Of a stretch of DNA of 64,000 nucleotides, positions 5,544 to 31,600 are shown one piece after another. How positions within the stretch are numbered: the first letter of the stretch is position 1; each line of letters starts with the position of its first letter. The DNA comes from Bryobacteraceae bacterium (GTDB lineage: Bacteria; Acidobacteriota; Terriglobia; Bryobacterales; Bryobacteraceae), in the NCBI GenBank assembly GCA_036272235.1, contig DATAZF010000327.1:16862-80861 (forward strand). Reading direction: 5' to 3'. Under the pieces are notes generated by a model that ran no database searches, was not told the DNA's origin, and saw nothing but the letters and a program-made list of their open reading frames with translations. The position numbers and the translations under genes were made by a program.

Positions 5544-5694
5544 CAACATGACAAATGACTATTTCTCCGTGCCAACAACGAGAGGGCAAGGGAGTACCGT
5601 CAAGCCGGTTTGCGGACCCCGTAACTCCGCTCGCCGATCTCAACAGGCTCCCGAAAGAGCGTCTCTCGACGGTTTGATATCCAAGGAGAACAGG

Positions 5695-8600
5695 ATGATG
5701 CGGACGGAGTTTGTTAACATCGAAGACACACAGAGTATGCAGGGCCGCATTGTCCCGGAGCGAACTCTGGTGCCTGTCCGGTGTGTTTCCAGGGAAGGAT
5801 CGATTAGAGTGAGAGCCCTTAAATCCCTCGATGCGTATGCCGCGAGGGCGATCCTGTTGTTGTTTTCATTATTGCTTTCCAACGGGGCTTTTGCCGGCCA
5901 GTCGGCGGTGTTTACAGCCACTACACCGGCTATCTCGGTGGCAGATCCGGTTGCTGCTCAGAATCAACCGTGGCGGGTAGAATTTCAGGTGCACAACTGG
6001 ACGCTTCCGCCCGCGGGAACTCAGTCGGAGACCTTCTTTTACTTCGCCGGGCTGGGCGCCGTGGCATATTTCTACCCGGATGGCTCAATGGCCACGGGAT
6101 CGTCGCGAGACACAGTGGTCGAGCAGCAACCCTGCTTCGTAAAGACCACCGGGCTCACCAACGTCCTGGTACGCCTGCAGCGCGACGTTGCGAATATGCA
6201 GATCACCTGCGAGCTGTGGAACTACGACGGAACCGCTTACACCAGCCAGGTAGATCACATAAAAACACTGGGAACCTCGTCGTTTGGCGGGGGAACCATT
6301 GGCGGAGCGGGACTCACCGCATCGATCGGGTTTCTGCGTGTGTTCTCCACTGCGGTTCCGCTTGGCAGTCGGCCCCCCGCGACCGCGGATGTGGGCGACT
6401 ATGTGAATTTCACGCTGGACGGCAATTTAAACGATACCGGCGCGCGAGCGCGCAACGGCTCGGGGACATTGACATACGTTGCGACACCCAATCAGGTTCC
6501 AATCGCGCTTCCGAAAACTCTCAATGCTCCTTCATGGAGCAACGCGGTATCCCTCAGGGCAGGTTTTCCCGCGCAACTTGACGGCTCCGCAAGTTACTCC
6601 ATGGCGGATGGGGATTCCTCTGTCACCTACCTTTGGCAACAACTCAGCGGACCGTCAACACTCATCTGGAAGAACAGAGACAAAGCGCAGCCAACCATCA
6701 CCGGACTTATTTTCGGCGACTATACCTTTCGCCTGCAGGTAACCGATGTCAAGGGTAATAAGGCAAACGCGACACTGGAGGCCGGGGCTGTCGCGACCGA
6801 CGCCAACGGAGTCGTCGTGAATGCCAATCCGGCGGCCGATGCTCTCTTCGGGCCGATGATAGCCTTCGGCAAGAATCCGTGGGGCTGGGCCGACGCAAGG
6901 AATCTCGCGATGGAGAATCTGCAGAAGAACACTTATGCGACTCCGCCTACGTGGTCGTCGCCTGCTGAAAACCATCCGGTAACTTATCGTTATTTCGGGA
7001 TAACGTCGCCGCTTACAACCTTGTCCGCCGATCTCTCTCCCACGGCGACGACGATTCCGGTTGTGAACGCCGCCACCATCGACCTGTCTGCTCTCCCGAC
7101 CGAGATTCTGGTCGGCAGCCTTCTCGGGCCGGAGATCGTGAGGATATGTTCCGCTGCGGGCAATGTTCTGAACGTTTGCTATGACGGGCGTGCTTTCCAT
7201 GCAGGGCATTCGCTGGACAAAGGGCCTTCCGCCTGGCCGGCAGGGGCCGGGATCTGGCAGGCCAGAGTTCATGGCGCAGGTACTCATTTTCTGACTACTA
7301 TTTGTCGCTTCGGTGCGGGCTATACTGTGGCTGCGAATAGCACGATTACCTCCGCGGGCTCGGTCGTTCTAACAGCGGGTTCCGCACTGGTGACCGGCAC
7401 CGGCGTAGTCTGGGACGGCACTCAGAACTCTTTGGTTATTGCTGTCAATGCAACCCACGGTGGCGGCGTTCCTTTCACGTTTTTGGCGAGTGTCGTCAGC
7501 GCTGCGGGGACTGCTCTTACCTTGTCGCGCCCCTACCCGGCGGATGCCGACGGCGGCGCCTTTTCCTACAATATTTTCAGCGATCAACGGAATATTGTTT
7601 TGAACTACACCAGGACCGACTCGGCCCCCGGCTCCATTTACTTCACGACCGCTGGCTGTGAATCCGACACAGATCTTTACCTGGATGGAGGCTGGGACAA
7701 CAGCTACACGGGACAGCTGGTAAGCGCATCGCCGTACTCCTACATGGATGGTTTCGGTTATGTTGGCGATTTCTCGCCCAACTACTACGATATGGGTCTC
7801 GCTCATTATGCGTTTTACTTCCGGTCGGGCTTGCGCCAGGCACTCACCTCCGCAAGGAGTATCGAAGACTACTGGATTCACTATCCCGAAATTGCGGAAG
7901 GGGAAGCCGGAGGCATCCCGCGCCGCGAGTCCATAACGGGAGTATATGCGGCTACTCTACTCGATGGAGACCGCGCATCAAACTGGCCCGGACTGCGTTC
8001 CTATGCGAAGGCCGGCGTTACAGTCGCGCAGGCGAACAACTGCGACGACGACCCTCGCGAGACCGCATATGAACTGAGCTGGCTTGCGCTCGCGGCGCAG
8101 TTCGATCCGGATCCGGCGCAGCGCCAGCAGTGGCAAACGGCTATGGCATCGGCATATTCGCGCGATAATGGCTGCAAAGGTACGGATAATTCTTATCCCT
8201 CGGGTTTCTACTGGAACCCAGGTCAATTTCCGCCCGTGATTGCAACCAGCGGATCACTTCAGCTAACCCCCGCGAGCGGAACTTTTCCTCCAAACATGTG
8301 CTACGGCGTGGCGTCTGGAACAGCTATAGCCACCAATGGTTCAGCGATGCTCACCGGCGTGACGGGCTCCTTCGTCCTGCCCGCCGGAAGCAATCAGCTG
8401 ATTGTGGGAGGCACGCGCATGGGCAACCGCTATGATCTGGCGGCTCAATTTGACTTCAATTCGCCAAACAGCGTGACAATGTCGGCGCTCTGGCCGGGCG
8501 ATAGTGGCGTTGTTTACTGGACCATCCAAAACAATAACGATACTCAACTGGTTACCACGATCGCGACTGGCCAGAGTGACTCCGCGAACTTCGGGCAGAT

Positions 8601-9465
8601 TTTCGGCTGCACCGAGACTGATTCCACCCATATCCTGCTGCACCGGCCCTGGCCAGGCAGCAGCGGCACTTACAATTTCTACTCGAGTAACCTTGTCGGT
8701 CGGGGCACCCAACCTTTTATGATGGGAATCAAGACCTTGCAGGAACGATTTGGTGCTCAGGCCTTCGCGCCCTACAAGAGTCTGGATGAGGGAGTCGCGA
8801 ACTGGGTTGGAACAGTAGGATTCGATGTCGCGCTCAAGGCGATCTCCTACGGACGCGGGTTCCCGCAATGCGAACCCCTGCTGACGGACAGCGGCATCAC
8901 CGATGTCGGCTATCGCAATGCGAATTGCGTCGAAAACAGTAACGATCCGATCGCGGTATCGGTGGCGCGCGCGCGAAACTCCGAAGCGCAAAACTCGATG
9001 ACCGTCAATTATCTGGCTCATCCGACGGCTGCGAACCAGCTGCTGGGGGATCAATTCTATGGAGGGACATTCGGTGCATCCGGATATACGGCCCCCGGCT
9101 ACTTCAGCGATGGCATTTCAGCGAGCAATCTGGATGACGTCAGTCTGGGCGCATACAAATGGCCGGGATTCTTCTTCGGAGTCGGTATGGCGCACCAATG
9201 GCCTGCCGCCCGCGTGGGAGGGGTTGCACCGCCGAAGAACCGGACGGTCTATGTTTCCTTTAACCCCGGAGCCGCCGCCTCTGCTCGTGTTGTGTTGACG
9301 GCGCCCTCGGGCGCTAATACGAGCTGGCAGTGCGGTTCGACCTCGCCCTGTGCGGTCACGGTTGATGACCGGCAGGGCAGTTACTGGTTTCGCATTCAGT
9401 ATCTTTCGGAAAGTGGCCGGGTGGTAGCTCAGTCGGACCCGGACCTGCTTGCGGCGGCCGAGTAG
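5695..9465 (+). CDS. large secreted protein, putative LamG-like + PKD-like + alpha-helical (polysaccharide-acting?) domains
   Basis: The ORF is open from 5548. ATG 5695 is preceded by AAGGAG with a 6-nt spacer, and GTG 5809 is an alternative start. Hydrophobic signal ARAILLLFSLLLSNGAFAG. PKD-like segment YLWQQLSGPSTLIWKNRDKAQPTITGLIFGDYTFRLQVTDVKGNKA. LDGNLNDTGARARNGSG resembles a LamG jelly-roll. The middle RETAYELSWLALAAQFDPDP region looks like an alpha/alpha repeat. Confidence 0.8.
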   Translation: MMRTEFVNIEDTQSMQGRIVPERTLVPVRCVSREGSIRVRALKSLDAYAARAILLLFSLLLSNGAFAGQSAVFTATTPAISVADPVAAQNQPWRVEFQVHNWTLPPAGTQSETFFYFAGLGAVAYFYPDGSMATGSSRDTVVEQQPCFVKTTGLTNVLVRLQRDVANMQITCELWNYDGTAYTSQVDHIKTLGTSSFGGGTIGGAGLTASIGFLRVFSTAVPLGSRPPATADVGDYVNFTLDGNLNDTGARARNGSGTLTYVATPNQVPIALPKTLNAPSWSNAVSLRAGFPAQLDGSASYSMADGDSSVTYLWQQLSGPSTLIWKNRDKAQPTITGLIFGDYTFRLQVTDVKGNKANATLEAGAVATDANGVVVNANPAADALFGPMIAFGKNPWGWADARNLAMENLQKNTYATPPTWSSPAENHPVTYRYFGITSPLTTLSADLSPTATTIPVVNAATIDLSALPTEILVGSLLGPEIVRICSAAGNVLNVCYDGRAFHAGHSLDKGPSAWPAGAGIWQARVHGAGTHFLTTICRFGAGYTVAANSTITSAGSVVLTAGSALVTGTGVVWDGTQNSLVIAVNATHGGGVPFTFLASVVSAAGTALTLSRPYPADADGGAFSYNIFSDQRNIVLNYTRTDSAPGSIYFTTAGCESDTDLYLDGGWDNSYTGQLVSASPYSYMDGFGYVGDFSPNYYDMGLAHYAFYFRSGLRQALTSARSIEDYWIHYPEIAEGEAGGIPRRESITGVYAATLLDGDRASNWPGLRSYAKAGVTVAQANNCDDDPRETAYELSWLALAAQFDPDPAQRQQWQTAMASAYSRDNGCKGTDNSYPSGFYWNPGQFPPVIATSGSLQLTPASGTFPPNMCYGVASGTAIATNGSAMLTGVTGSFVLPAGSNQLIVGGTRMGNRYDLAAQFDFNSPNSVTMSALWPGDSGVVYWTIQNNNDTQLVTTIATGQSDSANFGQIFGCTETDSTHILLHRPWPGSSGTYNFYSSNLVGRGTQPFMMGIKTLQERFGAQAFAPYKSLDEGVANWVGTVGFDVALKAISYGRGFPQCEPLLTDSGITDVGYRNANCVENSNDPIAVSVARARNSEAQNSMTVNYLAHPTAANQLLGDQFYGGTFGASGYTAPGYFSDGISASNLDDVSLGAYKWPGFFFGVGMAHQWPAARVGGVAPPKNRTVYVSFNPGAAASARVVLTAPSGANTSWQCGSTSPCAVTVDDRQGSYWFRIQYLSESGRVVAQSDPDLLAAAE

Positions 9466-18415: not shown

Positions 18416-18712
18416 ATGTCAGGCCAGCAGGATCAACAGGTTACGATACGTCTCCTGCCTGACGGAGCAAATCATCCTGCGGTCCTCGACAAGCTCAACG
18501 GCCAGCTTCTGTGGCTGGGTTTGTCTTCGCCCGCTGGCCCGGAGACTCCGGGGCCCGGCGACCTCGTGGAAGTGACGTGCCCGACAACTCTTTACCTCGG
18601 GACGGTCCGCACCCACCAGGGAGCGACCATGATGATTGCCGTGGAACATGCTCTCGACCGTGAGACGCTTGCCGTCATTCAGGAGGTCTGGAAGGGCCCT
18701 GCGGGCCGATAG
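18416..18712 (+). CDS. hypothetical small protein (98 aa)
   Basis: ATG ORF in the 470-bp divergent spacer upstream of the WecA-like gene. Codon usage looks GC3-rich like its neighbours, but there is no recognisable motif. Confidence 0.4.
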   Translation: MSGQQDQQVTIRLLPDGANHPAVLDKLNGQLLWLGLSSPAGPETPGPGDLVEVTCPTTLYLGTVRTHQGATMMIAVEHALDRETLAVIQEVWKGPAGR

Positions 18713-18800: not shown

Positions 18801-20201
18801 ATGACGAACCTGACCCAACTGATGCTGGCCAGCGGCAACGCCTTCATCTTTTCGGTTGCGCTGACGCCCATCGCGAGAGACATCTTCCGGGCGTACAACG
18901 TAGTGGACCGGCCGGGCAGGCGAAAAGTCCATACCTATCCCATCCCGCGGATTGGTGGAATTCCGATTGCGATCGCCTATGTTATAGCGCTGAACTCTCT
19001 GCGTGGCCCCACATCGGGCTTTCCACTTCACTGGCTTCAGACAATCCTCTCGGGCACCGCCATCATCTTTGTCACTGGTCTGATCGATGATTTCCTGAAT
19101 CTCAAGCCGGTAGTTAAGCTGGTCGGGCAGATTCTTGCGGCAGTCGTCGCGTTTCTCAACGGTCTGAGCATCGACCATGTGGGCGGCGCCATGTTGCCGG
19201 CCTGGTTGAGTCTGCTGATCACGGTCTTCTGGCTCCTGTTGACGACGAACGCCTTGAACCTCATCGACGGACTCGATGGTCTTTGTGGAGGCATTGCTTT
19301 ATGGGCGACACTGACTTTCTTCGTTGTTGCCTTCACGCACGGAAACAACATGCTGGCGTTCACCGCCTTGCCCCTGGCCGCCATCCTGCTCGGTTTTCTC
19401 GCTTTCAATTTCAATCCCGCCACGGTCTTTCTCGGGGATTCCGGCGCCTTGACCATAGGATTCCTGCTCGGATGTTATGGCATTATCTGGACCGGGCACC
19501 AGATTACAGGCGGCGGGCTTGTTGTGCCGCTTCTGGCGTTGTCCGTTCCGATGCTGGATCTTGGTCTCTCGATCGTCCGGCGCACCCTGAAACACCAGCC
19601 CATCTTTTCGGCGGATCGCGGTCACATTCATCACATGCTGCGCGACCGCGGGCTCAGCGTTCGAGGAGCCGCCATGATCCTCTATGCTGTCAGCGTTGCC
19701 GGTGGGCTCACCGCTCTCCTTCTCAGTCATACGGGTGGCCACCCCTGGCTGCGAATCACGATCGTCGCCGCGGTTGCCGCCGCTACGCTGGCCGGTGTCC
19801 GGGAGTTAAGGTACCCTGAATTTGAGGTCGCCGGGCGTCTTCTGTTTCGCGGAGAATTTCAAAAAGTATTCGCCGGTAAATTGCGCATGAAGCAGCTGGC
19901 GCAGGCGCTGGAGCGCGCCGCGACCGCCGAGGACTGGTGGCGGCTGCTCGTCGCTGCCGCCGGCGAGTGGCACTGCGTCCGCGTGACATGGGTCGGTCCC
20001 GGCGTTTTTCGCGAAGAAGTCCTGAATGCGCGTAAACCCTCGTGGTCATTCGTCATCGCGTTGAGCGAGGCGGAGTCGATCCATTTGGAAGGCGATTCCC
20101 GAACGTCGAGTCTCCAGCCCGATCTTGCAGAACTCCCGGCGATTCTCGCCCGTACATTCCAGCCCGGCTTGCGCGACGTCCGGCAACCGGCCGTTTCCTG
20201 A
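18801..20201 (+). CDS. WecA/MraY-family polyprenyl-phosphate N-acetylhexosamine-1-phosphate transferase with ~130-aa C-terminal extension
   Basis: Motifs LIDDFLNL, NALNLIDGLDGL, VFLGDSGALTIGF and HIHH are all present. The stop TGA (20199-20201) overlaps the next ATG (TGATG). Confidence 0.85.
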   Translation: MTNLTQLMLASGNAFIFSVALTPIARDIFRAYNVVDRPGRRKVHTYPIPRIGGIPIAIAYVIALNSLRGPTSGFPLHWLQTILSGTAIIFVTGLIDDFLNLKPVVKLVGQILAAVVAFLNGLSIDHVGGAMLPAWLSLLITVFWLLLTTNALNLIDGLDGLCGGIALWATLTFFVVAFTHGNNMLAFTALPLAAILLGFLAFNFNPATVFLGDSGALTIGFLLGCYGIIWTGHQITGGGLVVPLLALSVPMLDLGLSIVRRTLKHQPIFSADRGHIHHMLRDRGLSVRGAAMILYAVSVAGGLTALLLSHTGGHPWLRITIVAAVAAATLAGVRELRYPEFEVAGRLLFRGEFQKVFAGKLRMKQLAQALERAATAEDWWRLLVAAAGEWHCVRVTWVGPGVFREEVLNARKPSWSFVIALSEAESIHLEGDSRTSSLQPDLAELPAILARTFQPGLRDVRQPAVS

Positions 20202-21499
20202 TGCGAGGGCTGGATAAAGCGATAGACCTGCTGCTCATCTCGGCCGGGTTCGCGGGAGCTGCTCTCGTCTATACAACATTTTTCCGAGGCGGAGTCAGCA
20301 CCTTCGAAATGGCCCTGGGATCCGGAGCATCCGTGCTTGTCTTCTGGACGGCGGTTGAGTTCAGGCGCGCGGATCTCGAAAAGGCCGGCTTATGGGTCGG
20401 ATTTGTGGAGCGGTTCTGTCTTGGGACCGGAATCAATCTTCTTTTGCACGCCATCCTCACGTATGCGTTTTACATCCGCCGCACACCTTTTCTGATTGCC
20501 GCCGGTGGGCTGTTCTCAGCCGCGCTGCTAACCCTCCGCGCGCGGTCGACGGGACAGCGCGAACAGGCGCGAAAGCGCTTCCTGCTGGTGGGTTACGATT
20601 CGATTGCGGAGAAGATAATCGACCTGCTCCGGGAGCCGCTCATTGGCGTCCTGACAACAAACGCCTCGCTCGCGCCAGCCGACATTCCCCGTCTCGGCGA
20701 GGTGAGCGATATCGAAAGCGTTCTGAAGCAATACCGCCCCACAAACATCGTTGTGAGCATGAAGGACTGGGCGCGCCGGATTTCCCCTTCCTTTCTGTTG
20801 AACTGCCGGCTTTCCGGCATCAGTGTCGAGGAGTCGCCGGTCGTCTACGAGAGATTCTTCAGCCGCGTTTGTTGCGAACGATTGCAGCCCGTCGATCTTC
20901 TGCTCTCTTCCGCGCTGCGGGGCGACAGCCGCACGATGGCGATCCAGGCCGTTTATACGAATCTGATCGGGCTCGCTCTGCTGGTGATCGCCTCCCCGGT
21001 AATGCTGATCGCGGGCCTCGCTGTCGCTTTCGCCTCGGGGCCTGGCCCGGTATTTGAAAGCTTTGAGTGCGCCGGTTTCCAGTACATTCCATTCCGCCTG
21101 CTTCGCTTTCGCACCGCCCGTCTGAATGACCCTGGTACTTTAACCGGTTCCGGCAAAATCATTTCGCGCCTTCGTCTCGCCAACCTCCCACAGTTGCTCA
21201 ATGTTGTTCGCGGCGACATGGCGCTGGTGGGTCCGCGGCCGGTTCGATCGGAATTTGCGCGTTATCTTACGGATCTGATGCCGTTCTATTCGCACCGGTT
21301 TTCCGTGAGGCCCGGCATCCTTGGATGGGCACAGATGCACGCGCCAAAGGGGGGACAGGTGGTGGATGAGTGCCGCCAGATTGAATACGATCTCTTCTAT
21401 GTCAAAGAAGGGTCTCTGTGGATGGACGCCGAGATCATGCTGGAGAGCCCGATATCCGGGCGGACAGAGCCGAAATCGGACCGAAGCGGCGGCGGTTGA
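20201..21499 (+). CDS. 'bacterial sugar transferase' (monotopic PGT, WbaP/EpsB-like) paralogue 1, catalytic dyad not conserved
   Basis: C-terminal core LRFRT...RLANLPQLLNVVRGDMALVGPRP...RPGILGWAQ. The N-terminal TM segments and FLLVGYDSIAEKIIDLL (Rossmann-like) fit the large-PGT architecture. ATG 20201 is preferred over the ORF-track 20042 because of the TGATG coupling. Confidence 0.85.
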   Translation: MRGLDKAIDLLLISAGFAGAALVYTTFFRGGVSTFEMALGSGASVLVFWTAVEFRRADLEKAGLWVGFVERFCLGTGINLLLHAILTYAFYIRRTPFLIAAGGLFSAALLTLRARSTGQREQARKRFLLVGYDSIAEKIIDLLREPLIGVLTTNASLAPADIPRLGEVSDIESVLKQYRPTNIVVSMKDWARRISPSFLLNCRLSGISVEESPVVYERFFSRVCCERLQPVDLLLSSALRGDSRTMAIQAVYTNLIGLALLVIASPVMLIAGLAVAFASGPGPVFESFECAGFQYIPFRLLRFRTARLNDPGTLTGSGKIISRLRLANLPQLLNVVRGDMALVGPRPVRSEFARYLTDLMPFYSHRFSVRPGILGWAQMHAPKGGQVVDECRQIEYDLFYVKEGSLWMDAEIMLESPISGRTEPKSDRSGGG

Positions 21500-22668
21500 T
21501 GCCGCTCGTGTATGTATCGCTGATTGTCTCGGCGCTGCTGATAATTCATATCATCGCCGGATATCCGCTGCTGCTCGCCGTACGCCCCCGCGCTCGCAGG
21601 CCACGCGTTGTCAAAGACCCAGCTTTCGAGACTACGGTGTCGGTTATTCTCGCGGTTCACAACGGCGAGGCCATGATCCGCAACAAACTGGAAACGCTTC
21701 TTGGGCTCGATTATCCCCGCCGCCTGATGGATATCATCGTCGTCTCCGACGGTTCGACCGACCGGACGGAGGCGATTGTTCGGGAATTCGGGAACCGCGG
21801 CGTAAACCTTGTAATCGCACCTCGCGGGGGCAAGGCAGCGGCGTTGAATTACGGACTCGCCGCGGCGGCGGGAGAGATTCTCTTTTTTACCGATGTGCGC
21901 CAGCCTCTCGAACCGATGTCCCTCCGGCACATGGTCTCCAACTTCGCCGACAACACCGTCGGCGCCGTGACCGGCGAGCTACACCTGTTGAAAGGCGACA
22001 CTGGCGAACAGGCCGATATGGACTTATATTGGCGCTATGAAATCTGGGCTCGCACGCGTCATTCTGAAATCGATTCGCTCTTCAACACAACCGGGTGCAT
22101 CTATACGATGCGCAGGGCACTGGCGGGCCCACTGCCCCCCGATACACTCACGGACGATGCCATTCTCCCTCTGCGCGCATTCTTCAAGGGATATCGTGTG
22201 ATCTTCGATCCGTCTGCGATCGCGTTCGATTATCCGGCTGTGGCGGGGACGGAGTTCCGCCGCCGTTTCCGCACGCTTGCAGGGCTTTGGCAGGTACATG
22301 CGCGTTTACCCGAATTATTCACCGGCCGCAACCGGATGAGATTCCATTTCCTGTCACACAAATTCGGCAGGCTCGTGCTGCCGTGGCTGATCCTTGCGTT
22401 TTTCATCTCCGCGGCCGCTTTACCGGGCTCGTGGTTCCGGGCCTCTCTGCTTATCGCCGGTTTCATCTGGCTGTTGCTGGCCGCTGGCAACGCGCTCGTG
22501 TCTCCGGCTTCGCCGCTGAAGCGCGCGACTTCTCCCGCGCGGACGTTTCTGGTCATGAATGCCGCCGCGCTGGCATCCGTGGCCGTCTTTTTTGTGCCGG
22601 CAACCCGGCTGTGGCGTCCCACGCGGGTCCAGCCGGCCGGCGATGCGGCTCAATCTTCGAACAGGTAA
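21499..22668 (+). CDS. glycosyltransferase family 2 with C-terminal TM segments
   Basis: VSVILAVHNGEAMIRNKLETLLGLDYPRRLMDIIVVSDGSTDRT is the GT-A N-terminal signature. ILFFTDV is DxD-like. ATG 21499 overlaps the upstream stop (TGATG). Confidence 0.85.
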   Translation: MPLVYVSLIVSALLIIHIIAGYPLLLAVRPRARRPRVVKDPAFETTVSVILAVHNGEAMIRNKLETLLGLDYPRRLMDIIVVSDGSTDRTEAIVREFGNRGVNLVIAPRGGKAAALNYGLAAAAGEILFFTDVRQPLEPMSLRHMVSNFADNTVGAVTGELHLLKGDTGEQADMDLYWRYEIWARTRHSEIDSLFNTTGCIYTMRRALAGPLPPDTLTDDAILPLRAFFKGYRVIFDPSAIAFDYPAVAGTEFRRRFRTLAGLWQVHARLPELFTGRNRMRFHFLSHKFGRLVLPWLILAFFISAAALPGSWFRASLLIAGFIWLLLAAGNALVSPASPLKRATSPARTFLVMNAAALASVAVFFVPATRLWRPTRVQPAGDAAQSSNR

Positions 22669-22679
22669 CGCCGTCGGGC

Positions 22680-24026
22680 TCACGCCTCCGCTTCGACCGA
22701 ACCCTCCACGCGCTTGAGCGACAGCAGCATGATGAACAAATCCATCAACGGGGAAAGATTCTCGAGGTAGTAGAGGTCATATTCGAAATCTTTTACTGAA
22801 TCCTGTTGATCGCCGGGTTTCCGGTGAATTCGGGCCCATCCGGTAACCCCCGGTTTGACCCTGTTGCGCAGCGGGTAGACGGGGATCAGATCGTTCATCC
22901 GGCGCGCGAAGAGAGGGCGTTCCGGGCGGGGACCGACCATTGCCATTTGTCCTTTAAGAACGTTGAGCATCTGGGGCAACCACACGAGTCTCCGGCGTTG
23001 GAGAAATCTGCCGATCCAGGTATATTCGCCATCGCGGCTGACGCAGCGAAATCTGTACGCGTCGAACAGCGCTCCATTAAGTCCAACGCGGGGTTCAGTC
23101 GTCAGAACGGGGCCCCGCGAACTGAGTTTGATCAGCGCCGCGGCCGCCAGTGTGAGCGGTAAAGTGATTGCCACGACGAACAACGCCGTCACCCAGGAAT
23201 AAGCCGACTGAAGGCCGGCGCTGAAAAAACCGGGCTCCGTCTCCGTGCTGAAGATCGCATGCGAAGGCCAGATGTCTGTGATGCACTTTCGCGCAAAGAT
23301 GCGCTCGTAGAGGGTACCCGCCTCCTGAACGCGAACTCCTCCAAAGCGAAGCGTTAGAAATTCATCGGTCCACCACGGCCGGATATCGTCGCGATTGCCG
23401 ATGATGATCGAATCCGGAATGGATTGATCGAGGAGGAAATCGAGATCCTCCATCGTCCCCAGCCGCGTAATCCCGTTCGCACCCCGCGAGTTGTCCCCTT
23501 CCAGATAGCCGATCGTCGTGAGGCCCAGTTCGGGATGGACCTCGAAATGGTCCGCGATCGTCGCCACCGTCGGCGACATTCCAAGAAAGAGTACTCGCCC
23601 CGCAGCGACCGCGTGTTTGGCGGCGGAATCAAAGAGAAGACGCCAACCGAAGAGGACGAGGCCCGCCAGAAGCGTTCCGACGAGCGTCATCTTGCGTGGA
23701 ATGATCCAGTCAGGTTTGAGATAACCCAGGACGCCTTGCCCGATGAAGACCATACCAAAGATCACGCACAGGCTTTGCAGCAAGGCCAAACGGCTGCGAA
23801 TACGAACGTCGGCGTAGAGATTCGCGAAGAACAAACCCAGAATGACGAAGCCAACCGCGACCCCGATACGGAAAAAGCCCGAATCGTAAACCAGAAAAAG
23901 GTTCACATCGCCGATGTCGGGATCCAGAAAGGCGGAACCGGCAAAACAGGCGAACAGAAGGATGATCTCCGAAACGAACAATGTGAAAACGCGCGCCGGA
24001 ATGACAATGCTGAATATGCGGATCAT
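22680..24026 (-). CDS. 'bacterial sugar transferase' (monotopic PGT, WbaP/EpsB-like) paralogue 2, catalytic dyad not conserved
   Basis: Core YRFRC...RLVWLPQMLNVLKGQMAMVGPRP...KPGVTGWARIH. It has the same domain order as paralogue 1. ATG at 24026 (MIRIFSIVIPARVF) is preferred to the longer ORF-track start at 24146. Confidence 0.85.
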   Translation of the reverse strand: MIRIFSIVIPARVFTLFVSEIILLFACFAGSAFLDPDIGDVNLFLVYDSGFFRIGVAVGFVILGLFFANLYADVRIRSRLALLQSLCVIFGMVFIGQGVLGYLKPDWIIPRKMTLVGTLLAGLVLFGWRLLFDSAAKHAVAAGRVLFLGMSPTVATIADHFEVHPELGLTTIGYLEGDNSRGANGITRLGTMEDLDFLLDQSIPDSIIIGNRDDIRPWWTDEFLTLRFGGVRVQEAGTLYERIFARKCITDIWPSHAIFSTETEPGFFSAGLQSAYSWVTALFVVAITLPLTLAAAALIKLSSRGPVLTTEPRVGLNGALFDAYRFRCVSRDGEYTWIGRFLQRRRLVWLPQMLNVLKGQMAMVGPRPERPLFARRMNDLIPVYPLRNRVKPGVTGWARIHRKPGDQQDSVKDFEYDLYYLENLSPLMDLFIMLLSLKRVEGSVEAEA

Positions 24027-24115: not shown

Positions 24116-24736
24116 TTGACATCGCGACCCACCAGAGCGGAGGCACTCTATCGCCTGGCAGTAAGAGTTCTGGCGACGATTGGCCTGCTCTTCGTGCTCG
24201 TCACCTTCTCGCCATTCGTCAACTGGTACGCTACCGCTCTCGCGCTCCCGTGGTCTGACTATCGCGGTGACGTGCTGGTGGTGCTGAGCGCAGCCGGTCC
24301 GAACCGGGGGATTATGGACGCGAGCACCTACTGGCGCTGTTTCATGGCGATACTCTACGATCGCGAGTATCCATACAGGGAGATTATCGTGAGCGGGAAG
24401 GATGCCGCTGCCGGCATGCGGGATTTCCTGGTCTTCAATGGCGTTGCTCCGGAGCGGATCCGGGTGGAAGACAAATCCACCAATACTCGCGAAAACGCCC
24501 TGTTCACCGCCCCCATGCTCGCCGGGATTCATGGGCGAATTGTGCTCCTGACAAGCGACAGCCACATGTTCCGGGCCAGTAGATGCTTCGCCAGGCTCGG
24601 CATCAGCGTCATCCCTTCGGCCGTGCCGGATATCATCAAGCGCGCCGGTGAATACCGCGCCCGGCCCGAGCTGTTCATCGCTGAAGTGCAGGAAACCGCC
24701 GGTATCTTTTATTACTGGCACCGCGGCTGGATCTAA
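24116..24736 (+). CDS. DUF218 (YdcF/SanA/ElyC-like) family protein
   Basis: N-terminal TM helix, GDVLVVLSAAG, TNTRENALFTAPML and RIVLLTSDSHMFRA match the DUF218 pattern. The start is TTG and uncertain. Confidence 0.7.
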   Translation: MTSRPTRAEALYRLAVRVLATIGLLFVLVTFSPFVNWYATALALPWSDYRGDVLVVLSAAGPNRGIMDASTYWRCFMAILYDREYPYREIIVSGKDAAAGMRDFLVFNGVAPERIRVEDKSTNTRENALFTAPMLAGIHGRIVLLTSDSHMFRASRCFARLGISVIPSAVPDIIKRAGEYRARPELFIAEVQETAGIFYYWHRGWI

Positions 24737-25005: not shown

Positions 25006-25878
25006 TTATTTTATTGCTCGAATTTTTTTGTTCGTCCGCGCGCTCGTCTTCGCCGGTTTCCGCGCGGCTTGAGTCGCGATGGACTTCTTTTTCACCGCCT
25101 TTTTCGCCACTGCCTTCACTGCTCTACCGCGACTCTTTGCCGGCGGCGCGTCAATCTCACCGCCTGGCGCCATGTCGAGCCCGAACATACCGGACAGGTC
25201 TTCCGCATCCAGAACCCTCCCGGCGACGGGCGCGGATTTTGAAAGCCGGAGCCCCTCGCCGGCATTCGCGATCAGCTCTTTCTCATCTACGCCCCGGAGC
25301 AGGAACAGAAGCTCCGGCTGCCGGTCGAGCCGGGCTCCGACGCCGTAGAGCGCCGCTGCCACATGCTTGCACATCCAGGCTCCATCGGGACAGCTGCACG
25401 ATAAATCGATTTCGGTCGGCGAGGGAAACAATCCCTGATCCTGCCGGCAGATTCTCTCCATGACACCTTTCGAAAATCGCCCCTGCAGAAGCTCGACGAG
25501 AGAATCGATGGCGCCCGCGCAGTCGGTGCATATGGACTTCCAGCGCTTCGGGCCCACCGCCGCAATTTTTAGTTTCACCTTGTAAAGCGCCGAGCCGCTC
25601 ACCAGCGCTTCGATCGAGCCCTGGTTTACCTCGAGATGAATCACCGAACCATTGCGAGCGTACGTGCGCCCTCGCGGCAGACGGTTGGCATAGTCGCTGT
25701 AGCGCTCCAGATTTTCGCACCACGATTTGCCCCAGAAAGTGTTCGCGATCTTGCGGCCTTCGATCACAATGGGCGTGATGCTCTCACCTCGCTTGCGGCG
25801 TTTTTCCACCTCGATCGCCGCCTTGCGCCGCCGCTCCGCGGCTGAGACGTGCGGCCCCCAGCCGTAATGGAAATCCAC
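25006..25878 (-). CDS. SWIM zinc-finger protein with Lys/Ala-rich basic C-terminal tail
   Basis: CSCPDGAWMCKHVAAALYGV is the CxC-x(n)-CxH SWIM signature. The tail is AKSRGRAVKAVAKKAVKKKSIATQAARKPAKTSARTNKK. It starts 3 nt after the SNF2 gene stop. Confidence 0.85.
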   Translation of the reverse strand: MDFHYGWGPHVSAAERRRKAAIEVEKRRKRGESITPIVIEGRKIANTFWGKSWCENLERYSDYANRLPRGRTYARNGSVIHLEVNQGSIEALVSGSALYKVKLKIAAVGPKRWKSICTDCAGAIDSLVELLQGRFSKGVMERICRQDQGLFPSPTEIDLSCSCPDGAWMCKHVAAALYGVGARLDRQPELLFLLRGVDEKELIANAGEGLRLSKSAPVAGRVLDAEDLSGMFGLDMAPGGEIDAPPAKSRGRAVKAVAKKAVKKKSIATQAARKPAKTSARTNKKIRAIK

Positions 25879-25881
25879 GGA

Positions 25882-28554
25882 TTACGCCTCCTTCAGGGCC
25901 TTGCTCAAGTCGAGCGAGACCATCTTCAGCAACTCCGAATCGCTCAGTTCCGTCAGCAGCAGGTCCGCGCCGCCCTCGAGCAATTCATGCGAAAGCTGGC
26001 GCTTGGCTTCGATCAACTCATCGATTTTCTCTTCCACGGTACCGCGGCAAACAAACTTGTGGACAAGCACATTTTTCGTCTGGCCGATTCGAAAAGCCCG
26101 GTCGGTCGCCTGGTTCTCAACCGCCGGATTCCACCAGCGGTCGAAGTGTACGACGTGCGCCGCGGCGGTTAAGTTCAGACCGACGCCCCCGGCTTTCAAC
26201 GAGAGCACGAAGAAGCCCACCGATTCGTCTTCCTGAAATCGCTTTACAAGTTGTCCCCGGCTCTTTACGTTCGTTTCGCCGTGCAGCACGAGACCTGGAC
26301 GTCCGAACACTGCGCCCAAAAAACCGGCGAGAGGACCCGTGATCTCGCGAAACTGCGTGAACACGAGCATTTTTTCCTGCCGGGATGCGACCACCTCGGC
26401 GATCTCGCGCAGCCGCGTCCATTTCCCGCTTTCGGTTTCGTTCCATGCTCCATCACTCAGCCATTGCGAGGGATGGTTGCAGATCTGTTTGAAGCGCATC
26501 AGATACGAGAGGACCAGCCCTTTACGCTGAATTCCTTCCGCAGTTTTGAGTTGCGCGGCGAGTTCCCCGACGGACTGTTCATACAGGGCAGCCTGCGAAC
26601 GAGTGAGCGGGCAGAATGCTTTGATCTCGGTCTTGTCCGGAAGATCCGGAATTACTGCCTTGTCGGTCTTGAGACGCCGGAGGATGTAAGGCCTTACCAA
26701 CTCGCGCAGCGGGCCCCAGGACGCATGCGGCCCGTCGGCGAGCCGTTTGGTGAAGGCTGTGAACTCCTTTGCGGATCCGAGCAGCCCCGGATTGATGAAA
26801 TCGAACAGCGACCACAGATCCCCCAGGCGGTTTTCCACTGGTGTGCCAGTCAGCGCCATCCGGGCTTCGGGCTTGAGATTCTTCACGGCACGCGTTTGTT
26901 TGGCGGCCGGGTTCTTGATGGCCTGCGCTTCGTCAAGAATCACGAGACGCCAGGAGACCTCACCGATCCATGACACTCGCAGCAGGGAGCCGTAAGTGGT
27001 AATCACCAGATCCACATCGCGCGCGCGATCTCCTTGCAACTTCCTGAACTCTCCTGGCGGCCAGGCCGAGGGATGCGCAATCAGCGCTTTCAGACCCGGC
27101 GCGAATCGCTCGATTTCCGACGCCCAGTTGGCCAGCAGCGAAGCGGGCGCAATCAACAGGCTGGGCTTCGTATGAACCGCCGATTCACCTTTGAGCACGA
27201 GTAGCAGCGCGAGCACCTGGATCGTCTTGCCAAGCCCCATGTCGTCGGCCAGACAGGCGCCGAGGCCGAGCCTGCTCAGCAGGTGGAGCCATCGAACGCC
27301 AGTCCGCTGATATGGCCGAAGCGTACCCTTCAGCGCATCGCCTGGATCGGGGCCGCCCAGACCCTCGGGGCTCCGCAGCGCACGCAGGGTTTCCGCCAGC
27401 CACGGGCCCGCAACCATCTCCGCCCAATCAGGACCATCGCCCGTTTCCGCATCCGCAAGGCCGGGGTCGGCTCCCGCGATCAGACGCGACGCTTCGCCGA
27501 AACTGAGGCCGTTCTCGCGAGCCGCTCGCTCAACTTCGCCAAAGCGATCGATCATCAGCTTCAGGCGTTCCCCGTCGAGTTCGATCCAACGCCCTCGTAT
27601 CAGAGCCAGCCCATCCGATTTGGCCAGCAACTCCCGGATCTCTGCGGCTGTGAGCGTTTCACCGTCGAGTGTGACCTCCATATGGAAATCGAGCAGCGCA
27701 TCGCTGCCGATTCCGGACGGAGGCTTCCTTCCCACTGTCCCCGTCACACGCGGACGAGCCGGACGATTTTGCCGCCAGGCCGCGGGCATACGAACGACGA
27801 CACCGGCTGCTTCGAGCGCGGGGACGTCTCGCAGGAGTTGGAGGGCTTCGCCCGGCGTCCAGCGCAACGGATGGAAGATTTCACCCGCATCCACCATAGT
27901 CTTCAACCACGCGCACGATTCCGCCGCCCGTTGCACAGGTAGAAGGAGCGAGAGGAGACGTTCTCTATTCGCTGCGCCCGCATATTCGCTGAGCGCCTTT
28001 CCCAGAGGCAGGTGCTGTGGTTTGGCCTGCTGCGAGAGGTGTGTTGTATACGTAGCGAGAAAGGCAAAGGGGGCTTCCGGATCTTTCCGGTTCTCGGCCA
28101 GATTGAAGTGGACGCGCCCGACGAGGTTCCATGCGGGGTTACGCCGCTTGAGGAATTCCTGCGCGCCGCAACCGGATTCGGATAATTCAGTTACGAGGGC
28201 GTTATCGAGATCCAGCCATAGAGATTGGAGGACATCCGAGGTCAAATATTCGGCGCCGTTAATCGGCGGGGCCGAGAGGACAATTTTTTCGAGGTCCTCT
28301 CGTGATGGTGCTGCGGTCTGCTGTGTGCAGAAAGCGGCTACATATCGGGCGCCGAATTCCCGCCACCAGGCGAGGACAGGAGGCAGGGCGGAACTGGCTT
28401 CATCGAGACCGAGGAGTAGAAGTCCGTGGCCTGATCCCCGTTCGAACGCCTTCCGCAGCCGTGCGGCAAGGTCTTCGTTAAGTGGCTGCTCGGCTTCTCC
28501 GCCGGAAAGAACCAGATGTCCATGTGGGGTGAGCTTGAGTGTAACGCCGTCCAT
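25882..28554 (-). CDS. SNF2-family helicase/ATPase with bacterial SNF2-associated N-terminal domain
   Basis: LADDMGLGKTIQ (motif I), ILDEAQAIKN (motif II), LTGTPVENRL and the C-terminal helicase motifs (LSLKAGGVGLNLT, QATDRAFRIGQ) are present. The ORF extends to ATG 28641, but that would overlap the divergent dnaE2 start. ATG 28554 has GAGG 6 nt upstream. Confidence 0.9.
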   Translation of the reverse strand: MDGVTLKLTPHGHLVLSGGEAEQPLNEDLAARLRKAFERGSGHGLLLLGLDEASSALPPVLAWWREFGARYVAAFCTQQTAAPSREDLEKIVLSAPPINGAEYLTSDVLQSLWLDLDNALVTELSESGCGAQEFLKRRNPAWNLVGRVHFNLAENRKDPEAPFAFLATYTTHLSQQAKPQHLPLGKALSEYAGAANRERLLSLLLPVQRAAESCAWLKTMVDAGEIFHPLRWTPGEALQLLRDVPALEAAGVVVRMPAAWRQNRPARPRVTGTVGRKPPSGIGSDALLDFHMEVTLDGETLTAAEIRELLAKSDGLALIRGRWIELDGERLKLMIDRFGEVERAARENGLSFGEASRLIAGADPGLADAETGDGPDWAEMVAGPWLAETLRALRSPEGLGGPDPGDALKGTLRPYQRTGVRWLHLLSRLGLGACLADDMGLGKTIQVLALLLVLKGESAVHTKPSLLIAPASLLANWASEIERFAPGLKALIAHPSAWPPGEFRKLQGDRARDVDLVITTYGSLLRVSWIGEVSWRLVILDEAQAIKNPAAKQTRAVKNLKPEARMALTGTPVENRLGDLWSLFDFINPGLLGSAKEFTAFTKRLADGPHASWGPLRELVRPYILRRLKTDKAVIPDLPDKTEIKAFCPLTRSQAALYEQSVGELAAQLKTAEGIQRKGLVLSYLMRFKQICNHPSQWLSDGAWNETESGKWTRLREIAEVVASRQEKMLVFTQFREITGPLAGFLGAVFGRPGLVLHGETNVKSRGQLVKRFQEDESVGFFVLSLKAGGVGLNLTAAAHVVHFDRWWNPAVENQATDRAFRIGQTKNVLVHKFVCRGTVEEKIDELIEAKRQLSHELLEGGADLLLTELSDSELLKMVSLDLSKALKEA

Positions 28555-28634
28555 TCTGGCCTCATCAGCGTAGCAGGCCGGGTTGAAACCTTCATTTTCG
28601 CTATTTATTCGCCTATACTGGTAGCGGGAATTCC

Positions 28635-31600
28635 ATGCCATCTGCTTACGTGGAACTACATGCTCGCTCCGCTTTCAGTTTTCTCTGCGGCGCCAGTGTT
28701 CCCGAGGATTACGCCACATGCTGCGCCAGTCTTGACCAGCCTGGAATGGCGCTGCTCGATGTCGACGGCGTCTACGGGGCGCCGCGCTTTCATCAGGCAA
28801 TGAAAAAAGCCGGCCTCGCGTCGTATGTCGGCGCCGAAGTCACCTGCACCGATGGCGCGCGCTATCCACTGCTGGCCACCAGTCAGCGCGGATATCAGAA
28901 TCTTTGCCGGATGATCTCGCGTATGAAGCTGCGGACCGCCAAATATCCGAAGCCGGGGCGGGAAGCCGCTGCCACCCGCGAAGAGTTAGCCGGGTTTTCC
29001 GAAGGATTGATTTGCCTGACCGGCGCCGAAGACGGACCGCTCGCACATGGTTTGAACAAAAAAGAAGGACGCCTGACCATAGAGCGCCTGCAGCAAACCT
29101 TCGGCGCGAAGAACGTTTATCTGGAACTGCAGCGTCACTTTCATCGCGACGAGGAGGCACGCAACCAGGCTGTCATCGAATTGGGTCGAAGCCTGCGTCT
29201 GCCCCTGGTTGCCACCAATGGAGTTTGTTACGCCCGGCCTTCCGACAGACAATTGCTCGATGTTTTCACCTGCCTGCGGCACCACACCACGCTGGCGTTG
29301 GCGGGCCGGCTGCTGGAATGGAACGCCGAGCAGTATCCGAAATCGACAACGGAGATGCTGCAACTCTTCGATGATGTGCCCGATGCGATCGCCAATACAA
29401 AAGAAATCGCTTCCCGATTGCAGTTTGCGCTTACCGATCTGGGTTACCAGTTTCCGCACTATCCGGTTCCCGAAGGTCAGACTGAAGCAAGCTTTCTGTG
29501 CAAGCTGACCGAAGAATTTGGCCGGCGGCGGTTCGGAGACGAATATGAATCCGCGCGGCCGCAACTCGAGCGCGAACTGGCGCTGATCGCCAGGCTGGGC
29601 TTTGATGGATATTTTCTGATCGTCTGGGACATCGTCGAATACTGCAGGAAACAAGGAATTCTAATTCAGGGACGCGGCTCTGCCGCCAATAGCGCCGTGT
29701 GTTATGCGCTCGGCATCACGGCTGTCGATTCCGTAAAAATGAAACTGTTGTTCGAGCGGTTTCTGTCGGAAAACCGCGGGGAGTGGCCCGATATCGACCT
29801 CGATCTTCCTTCCGGCGAGCAGCGCGAAAAAGCGATTCAGTACGTTTATGAGCGCTATGGAAAACTGGGCGCCGCCATGACCGCGAATGTGATCACCTAT
29901 CGCGGACGGTCCGCTGCGCGCGAAGCGGGCAAGGTAATGGGGTTCGACGCCGAGACGCTGGGCACTCTTTCGAAGCTGGTGCCGATGTGGGGCTGGAAAG
30001 ATTCCTCGGACACTCCCGAAAAACATTTTCGCGAGGCCGGCCTCGATGTCTCCAACAGAAAAGTACATAAGTTTCTGGAACTGGTGACAGGACTGCAGGA
30101 CCTGCCGCGCCATCTCGGCCAGCACTCCGGCGGCATGGTGATCTGCCAGGGCCAGCTCGATTCGGTGGTGCCGCTCGAACCCGCCAGCATGCCGGGCCGG
30201 GTGGTAGTGCAGTGGGACAAGGAAGACTGCGCCGACATGGGCATCGTCAAAGTCGATCTGCTGGGGCTGGGAATGATGGCTGTGCTCGAAGAATCCGTTG
30301 AGCTCATCGACCGGCATTACGGAGAGAAAGTCGATCTGGCGCATTTGCCGCCTGACGATCCCAAAGTGTACGAGGCGCTGCAGCGTGCGGACACGATCGG
30401 ACTTTTCCAGGTGGAGAGCCGCGCGCAACAGGCTTCTTTACCGCGCATGAAGCCCACGAAGTTTTACGATCTTGTGGTGCAGGTGGCCATTATCCGGCCG
30501 GGTCCGATTGAAGGCAAGATGGCGCATCCTTATCTGGCGCGGCGGCAAGGCCGGGAAGCGCCGGAGCCGTTGCATCCATTGCTCGATGAAATTCTGAAAC
30601 GCACGCTGGGAGTGCCGTTATTTCAGGAACAGCTTCTCCGAATGGCCATGGCCGCGGCCGATTTCACCGGCGGCGAAGCCGAAGAATTACGCCGCGCTTT
30701 CGGTTTCAAGCGCTCCGAAAAGCGCATGCATGAAATCGAAGGAAAACTGCGCGCCGGGATGGATCGAAAAGGCATCACGGGGCAATCGCAGGACAAGATC
30801 GTGAAAGCGATCACCTCGTTCGCCATGTTCGGTTTCCCCGAATCGCACGCCGCCAGTTTCGCTTTACTCGCCTACGCCAGCGCCTGGCTGCGGACGTATT
30901 ATCTGGCGGCATTCACCTGCGCGCTGCTCAACAACCAGCCGATGGGCTTCTATCATCCTTCGACCCTCGTGAAAGACGCGCAACGGCATGGGCTGCGAGT
31001 GCTGCCGGTGGATATCAATCGGTCCACGGACGTTTGCACCCTCGAAGATCTTCAACTTCGCCTGGGGCTGAATTACGTGCGGGGACTGAATCGAAGGACA
31101 GCCGCCGCCATTGCGGAGAGGCGGCCATTTTCGAGCATTGACGATCTGGCGCTGCGCGTCCCGGAACTCACTAAAGATGAGATGGAAAAGCTGGCTGCTG
31201 TTGGCTCCCTCAATTCCATCGGCGCAAAGCATCGGCGGGATGCGCTCTGGAAGGCATCCTGGGCGGCGCGGCCCGCGAACGACCTTTTGCGGCAGGTTCC
31301 TGAGCCTGCCCCCGAAGCGCCTCTCCGGCAAATGACGCTCGACGAGCGGCTGGTGGCCGATTGCATTGGTACCGGGATGACCGTTGGGAAACATCCCATG
31401 GCGCATCGACGCGCGGAGATGGAGAAACTACACGTCACCCCTGCCGCCGCACTGCCTTCTCTGGCTCATGGCCGTATCGTTCGCGTGGCCGGAAATGTGA
31501 TTGTGCGCCAGCGCCCGGGCACGGCTAAAGGGATCATGTTCATGAGCCTCGAAGACGAGACCGGCATCTCAAACGTTGTCTTCATGCCGGATACCTTCGA

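Follow-up and report, generated by a model that had tools for sequence, protein, structure and literature searches.

Dyad-less homologues of large monotopic phosphoglycosyl transferases and their linkage to a WecA-type enzyme in acidobacterial polysaccharide loci

What is the function of a glycan-priming transferase homologue which has lost its catalytic residues and is encoded next to a second, seemingly intact priming enzyme? This question is raised by a polysaccharide locus in a stretch of 64,000 nucleotides (contig DATAZF010000327.1; termed the window in the following) from a metagenome-assembled genome of the Bryobacteraceae (Acidobacteriota). Two of its genes, here called par1 and par2, encode homologues of large monotopic phosphoglycosyl transferases (PGTs), and a gene for a polytopic PGT of the WecA/MraY type is located close by. 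A protein identical to par1 (100%) is deposited at NCBI under the name 'MAG TPA: Bryobacteraceae bacterium'. Monotopic PGTs are defined in the literature and in annotation by an Asp-Glu (DE) dyad. A first-pass annotation, made from the DNA letters and translated reading frames, had reported this dyad to be replaced in both proteins and had suggested that they are non-catalytic scaffold or regulatory subunits of a WecA-primed pathway, or else enzymes using a different nucleophile. The present analysis shows that catalytic and uridine-binding residues were lost from par1 and par2 while the fold was retained. In addition, the linkage of par1-type genes to genes for a WecA-like enzyme, a GT2 glycosyltransferase and a small protein is conserved. 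The par1/par2-type proteins thus apparently constitute an undescribed pseudoenzyme branch within the superfamily of monotopic PGTs, which has been conserved as partner of polytopic PGTs.

Translation and Pfam matches confirmed the four open reading frames (ORFs) of the first-pass annotation, with their coordinates and families (Table 1). The par1 and par2 proteins are paralogues with 31% identity over their full length (E 2e-45), and both score well above the gathering cut-off of PF02397 (27 bits). In phmmer comparisons with the PDB, PglC was aligned to par1 at E 3.5e-18 and to par2 at E 4.7e-21. The signature stretch of PglC and WbaP pairs without gaps with RLANLPQLLNVVRGDMALVGPRP in par1 and RLVWLPQMLNVLKGQMAMVGPRP in par2, with high posterior confidence throughout, and the positions of Asp93-Glu94 of PglC are occupied by Ala327-Asn328 and Val348-Trp349, respectively. 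This bears out the replacement of the dyad by AN and VW; the codons were checked by translation. Neither protein has an alternative acidic pair in the interval from the conserved G84 to the GxM motif, and the comparisons by hidden Markov model (HMM) and by structure likewise did not reveal an acidic pair at the site of the dyad. The canonical KFR[ST]M motif has changed to RFRTA in par1 and to RFRCV in par2. The degeneration of this motif had been recognized before, only in the wrong register: the strings LRFRT and YRFRC given at that time represent the same stretch shifted by one residue.

The losses extend beyond the dyad. We aligned 230 relatives with PglC and compared them at columns conserved to at least 90% in the canonical Asp-Glu relatives. 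Lys59 is replaced by Arg in par1 and par2, Met63 by Ala in par1 and by Val in par2, and Arg79 is gone from both lineages together with its loop of 12-15 residues ('DAEA..GAVWA..DPR'), which is deleted. Two further changes are confined to the par1 clade: Arg88 and Arg145, which bind undecaprenyl phosphate (UndP), drift or have been deleted, and only 68% of the sequences retain the PRP Arg. The positions retained comprise the Pro kink of the re-entrant helix (Pro24, 100%), G49, F55, F60-R61, G84, the LPQxxNVxxGxMxxVGP stretch, R129, PGxxGWA, E155-Y156-D157, Y160 and D169. The active site of PglC is centred on Asp93-Glu94 (PMC10186338), with Asp93 serving as nucleophile and Mg2+ ligand and the catalytically essential Lys59 as proposed general acid for the uridine monophosphate (UMP) leaving group (PMC10541605). 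Met63 and Arg79 form the uridine-binding motif (PMC12550135), and Arg88 and Arg145 were described as the UndP-binding residues (PMC10519829).

As had been pointed out, the VGPRP and PG(I/V)xGWA motifs are kept in both proteins and the fold looks intact. The AlphaFold2 (AF2) model of par1 has a mean predicted local distance difference test (pLDDT) score of 79.8 and comprises, from the N-terminus, four long helices, a domain of alternating beta and alpha elements and the PGT-like domain. In Foldseek searches it matched WbaP (8t53) at E 1e-13 over 437 columns, i.e. over its whole length, and PglC (8e37) at TMt 0.75 with a root-mean-square deviation of 3.2 A. Because the model matches WbaP at full length as well as PglC, the PGT fold and the architecture of large PGTs can be regarded as intact; matches to PF13727 are present in relatives. 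Judged from the sequences, par1 and par2 should be unable to run the known ping-pong reaction, and we infer that PGT activity is absent. A relation to the EpsB-type model associated with PEP-CTERM systems holds as far as ancestry is concerned. It is only ancestral, because par1 and par2 score 180.7 and 209.9 bits with TIGR03013, well under its cut-off of 393. Neither protein passes the cut-off of TIGR03025 (295.6) either, the scores being 184.3 for par1 and 220.5 for par2.

The dyad-less state is not confined to the window. Asp-Glu is present in 36/36 canonical relatives, in 0/115 sequences of the par1 clade and in 0/44 close relatives of par2, a distribution far beyond chance, and the non-acidic residues at the dyad positions are conserved among orthologues. 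None of the best 120 relatives of par1 (46-100% identity, from many independent metagenomes) has Asp-Glu, and 98 of them have VN, AN or TN. Within the par1 clade, A, V, T or S is found at position 93, and 86% of the sequences have N at position 94; the full-length orthologues of par1 number more than 100, down to 46% identity. The 44 close par2 relatives show [V/A/S/I]-Trp with an invariant Trp. A profile search in 1.84 billion representative proteins yielded 5370 relatives at E<=1e-30. DE occurs in only 15 of the best 150 representatives (clusters of 50% identity), and exactly these 15 also have KFR[ST]M. Therefore, the dyad-less state defines many diverse lineages, and the proteins concerned form a large family instead of a peculiarity of one locus. 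The named hits belong to the Acidobacteriota, while the cluster representatives carried no taxonomic names. A profile scan of genome contigs with par1 detected mostly canonical DE paralogues (30-37% identity) and three true par1-type species representatives, and was used as a control. In a neighbour-joining tree of the representatives, the DE sequences fall between par1-type and par2-type clusters, so that a single loss of the dyad and several losses are both compatible with the tree.

Conservation within each clade peaks in the PGT-like domain, where the mean column conservation is 0.7-0.88 vs ~0.5-0.6 for the N-terminus of par1. Across the wider family, position 93 spans V, T, A, D, E and I and position 94 N, G, R, H and A; these former catalytic positions are among the most variable columns of the domain, and the LPQLxNVVRGxMALxGP motif flanking them is nearly invariant. 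The dead PGT-like domain is thus under purifying selection. Selection was judged by column conservation; the closest orthologues share only ~76-79% protein identity, and saturation of synonymous sites would be expected at this distance. Conservation of fold and surface in combination with relaxed catalytic residues is the usual signature of a pseudoenzyme, not of gene decay.

Conserved gene order ties the par1-type genes to a polytopic PGT. Eight further par1-type loci were inspected (L001-L005, L083, L085 and L086), covering par1-type proteins down to very divergent members. The order small ORF (61-98 amino acids), WecA-like gene, par1-type gene is found in the window and in 8/8 of these loci. 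A GT2 gene follows directly after the par1-type gene in the window and in 6/8 further loci; in L083 this position is occupied by a Wzy gene, and the GT2 gene of L004 is located a few kb upstream. The junctions within the module are overlapping or nearly so, and the flanking genes vary between loci. In the window, both TGATG stop/start overlaps that had been noted were confirmed, between the WecA-like gene and par1 at 20199-20203 and between par1 and the GT2 gene at 21497-21501. Considering all fetched loci, a WecA-like homologue is encoded in 9/14 loci with a degenerate dyad vs 0/69 loci with DE proteins only. The par2-type genes, where present, are oriented convergently downstream of the module in the window, L001 and L002, and co-directionally upstream in L083 and L085.

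A different arrangement was observed on contig DATGGM010000144.1 (L069, 9734-12464), where a degenerate PGT homologue of the 'D-G' type is convergent to another WecA-like gene, whose product is 40% identical to that of the window. The pairing of a degenerate monotopic PGT with a polytopic PGT may have arisen, or persisted, in more than one arrangement.

The WecA-like protein itself shows the features of an intact member of its family that had been listed: the motifs LIDDF (DDxxD type), NALNLIDGLDGL (NxxNxxDGxDGL type), FLGDSG and HIHH were all found in the translation and are kept in the orthologues. It matches MraY structures at E 7e-9 and reaches 120 bits with the WecA model TIGR02380, for which the cut-off is 326, and hence is not an equivalog of E. 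coli WecA. A cytoplasmic C-terminal extension of ~130 amino acids (19800-20201, residues ~335-466), starting with 'ELRYPEF', has no match in Pfam or NCBIfam. It is conserved in most WecA-like orthologues (461-468 amino acids) and absent in L083 (352 amino acids). No canonical DE monotopic PGT is encoded in the 64-kb window, as a search with the family HMM against all six-frame ORFs matched only par1 and par2. The GT2 protein has one N-terminal and three C-terminal transmembrane helices and is the most conserved product of the module, with 56-67% identity across related loci. Among solved structures, its best match is 6yv7 (E 2e-19 over residues 12-323), a membrane GT2 and mannosyltransferase from a crenarchaeon that has a minimal cellulose-synthase-like fold. 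The cellulose synthase BcsA was matched more weakly. The protein may thus be a synthase-like membrane glycosyltransferase rather than a simple soluble transferase.

The small protein encoded by the first gene of the module is annotated as hypothetical and has 30 homologues. It has no match in Pfam, including PilZ, or in NCBIfam, and the RxxxR and (D/N)xSxxG motifs for binding of cyclic di-GMP are absent from the alignment of the 30 sequences. The AF2 model (pLDDT 84) consists of a six-stranded barrel and a C-terminal helix. PilZ domains (BcsA, YcgR-N, PA4608 and Alg44) dominate the Foldseek matches with TM scores of ~0.5-0.62, at weak E-values of 4e-3 to 0.3. By analogy with the small protein EpsW, which controls the large PGT EpsZ, including its dimerisation (PMC12802240), this PilZ-like protein may be a regulatory partner.

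Taken together, we give a slightly better than even chance to an explanation in which the WecA-like enzyme primes and GT2 extends the glycan, and par1 and par2 are non-catalytic membrane partners which scaffold or regulate the pathway. In this model, the WecA-like PGT would transfer the first sugar-phosphate to UndP, and the membrane GT2 would lengthen the lipid-linked primer. The par1 and par2 proteins, which have kept the four-helix membrane bundle, the Rossmann-like nucleotide-binding and dimerisation domain, the re-entrant helix and the compact PGT fold, would act as non-catalytic membrane subunits, possibly as a par1/par2 heterodimer. Their contribution could consist in scaffolding WecA and GT2, in handling of the lipid carrier or in nucleotide sensing via the Rossmann-like domain, and the small PilZ-like protein may serve as an extra regulator. 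A heterodimer is conceivable because large PGTs are dimers: they were described as obligate domain-swapped dimers, the accessory domain of which binds UMP, uridine diphosphate (UDP) and UDP-sugar (PMC10942596). Together with the control of EpsZ by EpsW (PMC12802240), this provides precedent for heterodimers of paralogues and for regulation at the protein level. The role as pathway partner proposed in the first-pass annotation is now considerably better supported, because the synteny with the WecA-like gene is conserved and Lys59, Met63 and Arg79 are lost as well; physical association with the neighbouring proteins and a scaffold or regulatory role are what we infer from this.

Several observations weigh against such a role. 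The C-terminal half of the PGT domain of par1 (the last ~90 residues) is modelled at a pLDDT of only 40-63. The Fisher test for the association with WecA-like genes (p = 6e-9) overstates the significance, as the loci do not represent phylogenetically independent cases. Only 5/9 par1-type loci (the window, L001, L002, L083 and L085) have an adjacent par2-type gene and, therefore, a par1/par2 heterodimer is not obligatory, unless par2 is encoded elsewhere in the other genomes. Furthermore, farther relatives of par2 in the same operon position keep Asp93 in the form of Asp-x (DA, DG, DR or DS), often with the PRP Arg lost too, and the par2 lineage may have kept a weak activity until recently. At ~40% identity to par2, canonical DE/KFRSM proteins are found which are named 'sugar transferase (PEP-CTERM system associated)' by IMG; from these and the Asp-x intermediates, we conclude that par2 descends from a TIGR03013-like lineage by stepwise degeneration. 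Finally, a pure scaffold does not account for an invariant Cys of the par1-type proteins, Cys290 in par1, and a conserved Glu286, which could mark a new active site.

This Cys occupies the position of the canonical invariant Arg47 ('QxRxG') and belongs to the motif FESxEC[A/S]GF of the par1-type branch. It is invariant in 115/115 clade members and is found in 75/113 non-DE full-length cluster representatives, in which positions 59, 88, 93, 94, 112 and 128 all vary; Glu286 is conserved alongside in 61 of these 75. Cys290 may have a structural role or may mark a new ligand-binding or catalytic site, and it keeps alive, for par1, the alternative of a different nucleophile. The par1-type proteins could then be neofunctionalised enzymes with a new site at Cys290 and Glu286, acting on the lipid-linked product of WecA or transferring phosphosugars by means of a Cys nucleophile, with thio-intermediate transfer and modification or hydrolysis of sugars linked to undecaprenyl diphosphate (Und-PP) as envisaged reactions. 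That the PGT-like domain is the most conserved part is more in line with ligand binding or catalysis than with an inert spacer, and the tight linkage between WecA and GT2 would suit an enzyme acting between both steps. However, Met63 and Arg79 for uridine and Arg88, Arg112 and Arg145 for phosphate binding are not conserved, so that a UDP-sugar-dependent reaction at the Cys site is improbable; no known enzyme of the PGT fold uses Cys, and par2 has no equivalent invariant new residue (only 89% of its clade share a Cys at the Ser62 position). We therefore consider a new enzyme of this kind unlikely. Quite unlikely, in our estimation, is the more far-reaching view of a family derived from monotopic PGTs, so far seen in Acidobacteriota only, which has abandoned phosphosugar transfer to become an obligate partner of WecA-type PGTs and whose par1-type members process or bind the Und-PP product at a Cys-centred site before GT2 acts.

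Another possibility is that par1 and par2 serve as dominant-negative or titrating partners of a canonical large PGT encoded elsewhere in the genome and, by forming heterodimers with it through the conserved dimerisation domain, shut down or modulate a competing pathway upon expression of the WecA operon and so redirect scarce UndP. Canonical DE/KFRSM large PGTs are indeed common in Bryobacteraceae and other Acidobacteriota (69 DE-only loci and 36 DE proteins, ~40% identical to par2), large PGTs dimerise through their accessory domain (PMC10942596; PMC12802240), and par2 clearly descends from the canonical lineage. Against this stand the lack of a canonical PGT in the window, the strict linkage to WecA and GT2 instead of canonical PGT loci, and the N-terminal and dimerisation regions of par1, which are less conserved than the PGT-like domain; we regard titration as very unlikely. 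That par1 and par2 are still ordinary PGTs in which other acidic residues compensate for the dyad is highly improbable. Conserved acidic residues exist at Glu155, Asp157, Asp169 and in the GxM motif, and Asp93 is retained in some relatives of the D-x types; however, the former are conserved to the same extent in canonical enzymes and do not take over the function of the dyad there. Lys59, Met63 and Arg79 are gone too, no acidic pair lies close to the aligned dyad, and its positions vary freely among orthologues, which would not be tolerable for a catalytic site. An artefact of sequencing or assembly, or decaying pseudogenes, can be regarded as refuted: the identical par1 protein is encoded on independent contigs, more than 160 full-length intact orthologues from independent metagenomes share the non-acidic state, and the conservation profile is that of purifying selection.

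The closest known counterparts of par1 and par2 are the large PGTs WbaP, WcaJ, CpsE and EpsZ (PF02397 and PF13727). The architecture and the Pfam match are shared, the predicted structure superposes on WbaP and PglC, and the motifs in common are P24, G49, F55, F60-R61, G84, LPQxxNVxxGxMxxVGP, PGxTGWA, EYD and D169. In addition, par2 grades at ~40% identity into proteins of the TIGR03013 type ('EpsB_2', PEP-CTERM-associated). Unlike large PGTs, par1 and par2 lack Asp93-Glu94, Lys59, Met63 and Arg79 with its loop, have lost Arg88, Arg112 and Arg145 to varying degree, stay under the cut-offs of TIGR03025 and TIGR03013 and, in the par1 type, have Cys for Arg47. Moreover, a canonical large PGT is the sole initiator of its own pathway, whereas par1-type genes are paired with a polytopic PGT.

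Pathways that are initiated by WecA and pair a polytopic PGT with a membrane GT2 are exemplified by the synthase-dependent O-antigen of Salmonella O:54 and by rhamnan and arabinogalactan priming. The module resembles these in having an intact initiator of the WecA/MraY family directly before a membrane GT2 in module order and in the presence of Wzx and/or Wzy genes, which adjoin it in L001, L083 and L086. The WecA-like protein described here differs by an extra C-terminal domain of ~130 amino acids, and to our knowledge neither accessory proteins resembling monotopic PGTs nor a PilZ-like small protein occur in any known WecA pathway. Pseudoenzyme partners are established in other branches of glycan assembly: in the glycosylation of streptococcal adhesins the non-catalytic GtfB acts with GtfA, and Alg14 recruits Alg13. 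With these pairs, and with EpsW and EpsZ, the module would share a dead paralogue or small partner kept under selection beside an active transferase, presumably through protein-protein contact. In contrast to pairs of the GtfA/GtfB type, the dead protein and the live enzyme belong here to two unrelated PGT superfamilies, and the small protein has a PilZ-like predicted fold and is not a receiver domain.

We found no description of dyad-less homologues of monotopic PGTs or of pseudo-PGTs in the open full-text literature, subscription-only papers being outside this search. Surveys of the whole PGT superfamily in the open literature do not mention dyad-less members, and no NCBIfam model captures par1/par2-type proteins. 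Current annotation by PGAP and IMG labels the dyad-less proteins as 'sugar transferase', and automated pathway reconstruction would score them as initiating enzymes. As ~135 of the best 150 representatives (50%-identity clusters) lack the catalytic and uridine-binding residues, the reading of acidobacterial exopolysaccharide loci changes: they should be re-read, because the initiator is probably the WecA-like enzyme and not the 'sugar transferase'. Acidobacteriota are dominant in soil, and their exopolysaccharides matter for soil aggregation. The findings also add a pseudoenzyme branch to a superfamily that is actively studied as an antibiotic target. They provide a natural system for the role of the non-catalytic parts of large PGTs, namely the membrane bundle, the nucleotide-binding domain and the re-entrant helix, for which lipid-carrier handling, dimerisation and regulation are candidates, in WbaP as well. 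If an obligate partner family of WecA were indeed at hand, it would represent the first functional coupling of two unrelated PGT superfamilies.

Table 1. Features at the 3' end of the polysaccharide gene cluster (positions in the window)
Feature	Position	Strand	Remark
Small conserved protein, 98 amino acids, PilZ-like predicted fold	18416..18712	+	First gene of conserved module
WecA/MraY-type polytopic PGT, 466 amino acids	18801..20201	+	PF00953 126.6 bits, E 1e-36
par1, dyad-less large monotopic PGT homologue, 432 amino acids, 'Cys type'	20201..21499	+	PF02397 113.4 bits
par1 Cys290, canonical Arg47 position	21068..21070	+	Alignment, codon checked
par1 Ala327-Asn328, site of catalytic Asp93-Glu94	21179..21184	+	Alignment, codons checked by translation
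Membrane-anchored GT2 glycosyltransferase, 389 amino acids	21499..22668	+	PF00535 E 6e-20
par2, second dyad-less large monotopic PGT homologue, 448 amino acids	22680..24026	-	PF02397 126.3 bits
par2 Val348-Trp349, site of catalytic Asp93-Glu94	22980..22985	-	Alignment, codons checked by translation
DUF218 (ElyC/YdcF-like) membrane protein	24116..24736	+	PF02698 E 7e-22

The genes listed in Table 1 are located at the 3' end of a polysaccharide gene cluster which extends from position 497 to ~24736. The cluster also encodes a PIG-L deacetylase, a GNAT/FemAB-like acetyltransferase, four GT4 glycosyltransferases, an FkbM methyltransferase, a class-I methyltransferase, a hexapeptide acyltransferase and an AsnB-type amidotransferase, the top match of which is the XrtA/PEP-CTERM amidotransferase model at a score under the model cut-off. 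None of the window ORFs of at least 180 amino acids was recognized as Wzx, Wzy, Wza, Wzc or exosortase, and an export route is not visible in the window. A gene of the DUF218 type recurs beside the module in L002 (7124-8224), in L086 (14153-14728) and on one contig of 6.6 kb. This link is not specific for the module, since DUF218 genes are also present near some canonical DE loci (L023 and L041). ElyC of E. coli is tied to the economy of UndP and to the WecA-initiated synthesis of enterobacterial common antigen, which would fit a theme of pathway control.

Two further genes within the cluster encode large or unusual proteins. A secreted protein of 426 amino acids with a collagen-like Gly-x-y stretch is encoded at 4263-5543 (+), and a K319L-like PKD-repeat protein of 1305 amino acids at 5548-9465 (+), the C-terminus of which shows no PEP-CTERM tail. 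Two giant PKD proteins of a similar type are encoded directly upstream of the module in L085 (497-7891), a distant locus. Just past the cluster of the window, at 25006-28641 (-), a SWIM zinc-finger protein and a helicase-like ORF of 919 amino acids are located, which are apparently unrelated to the findings on par1 and par2.

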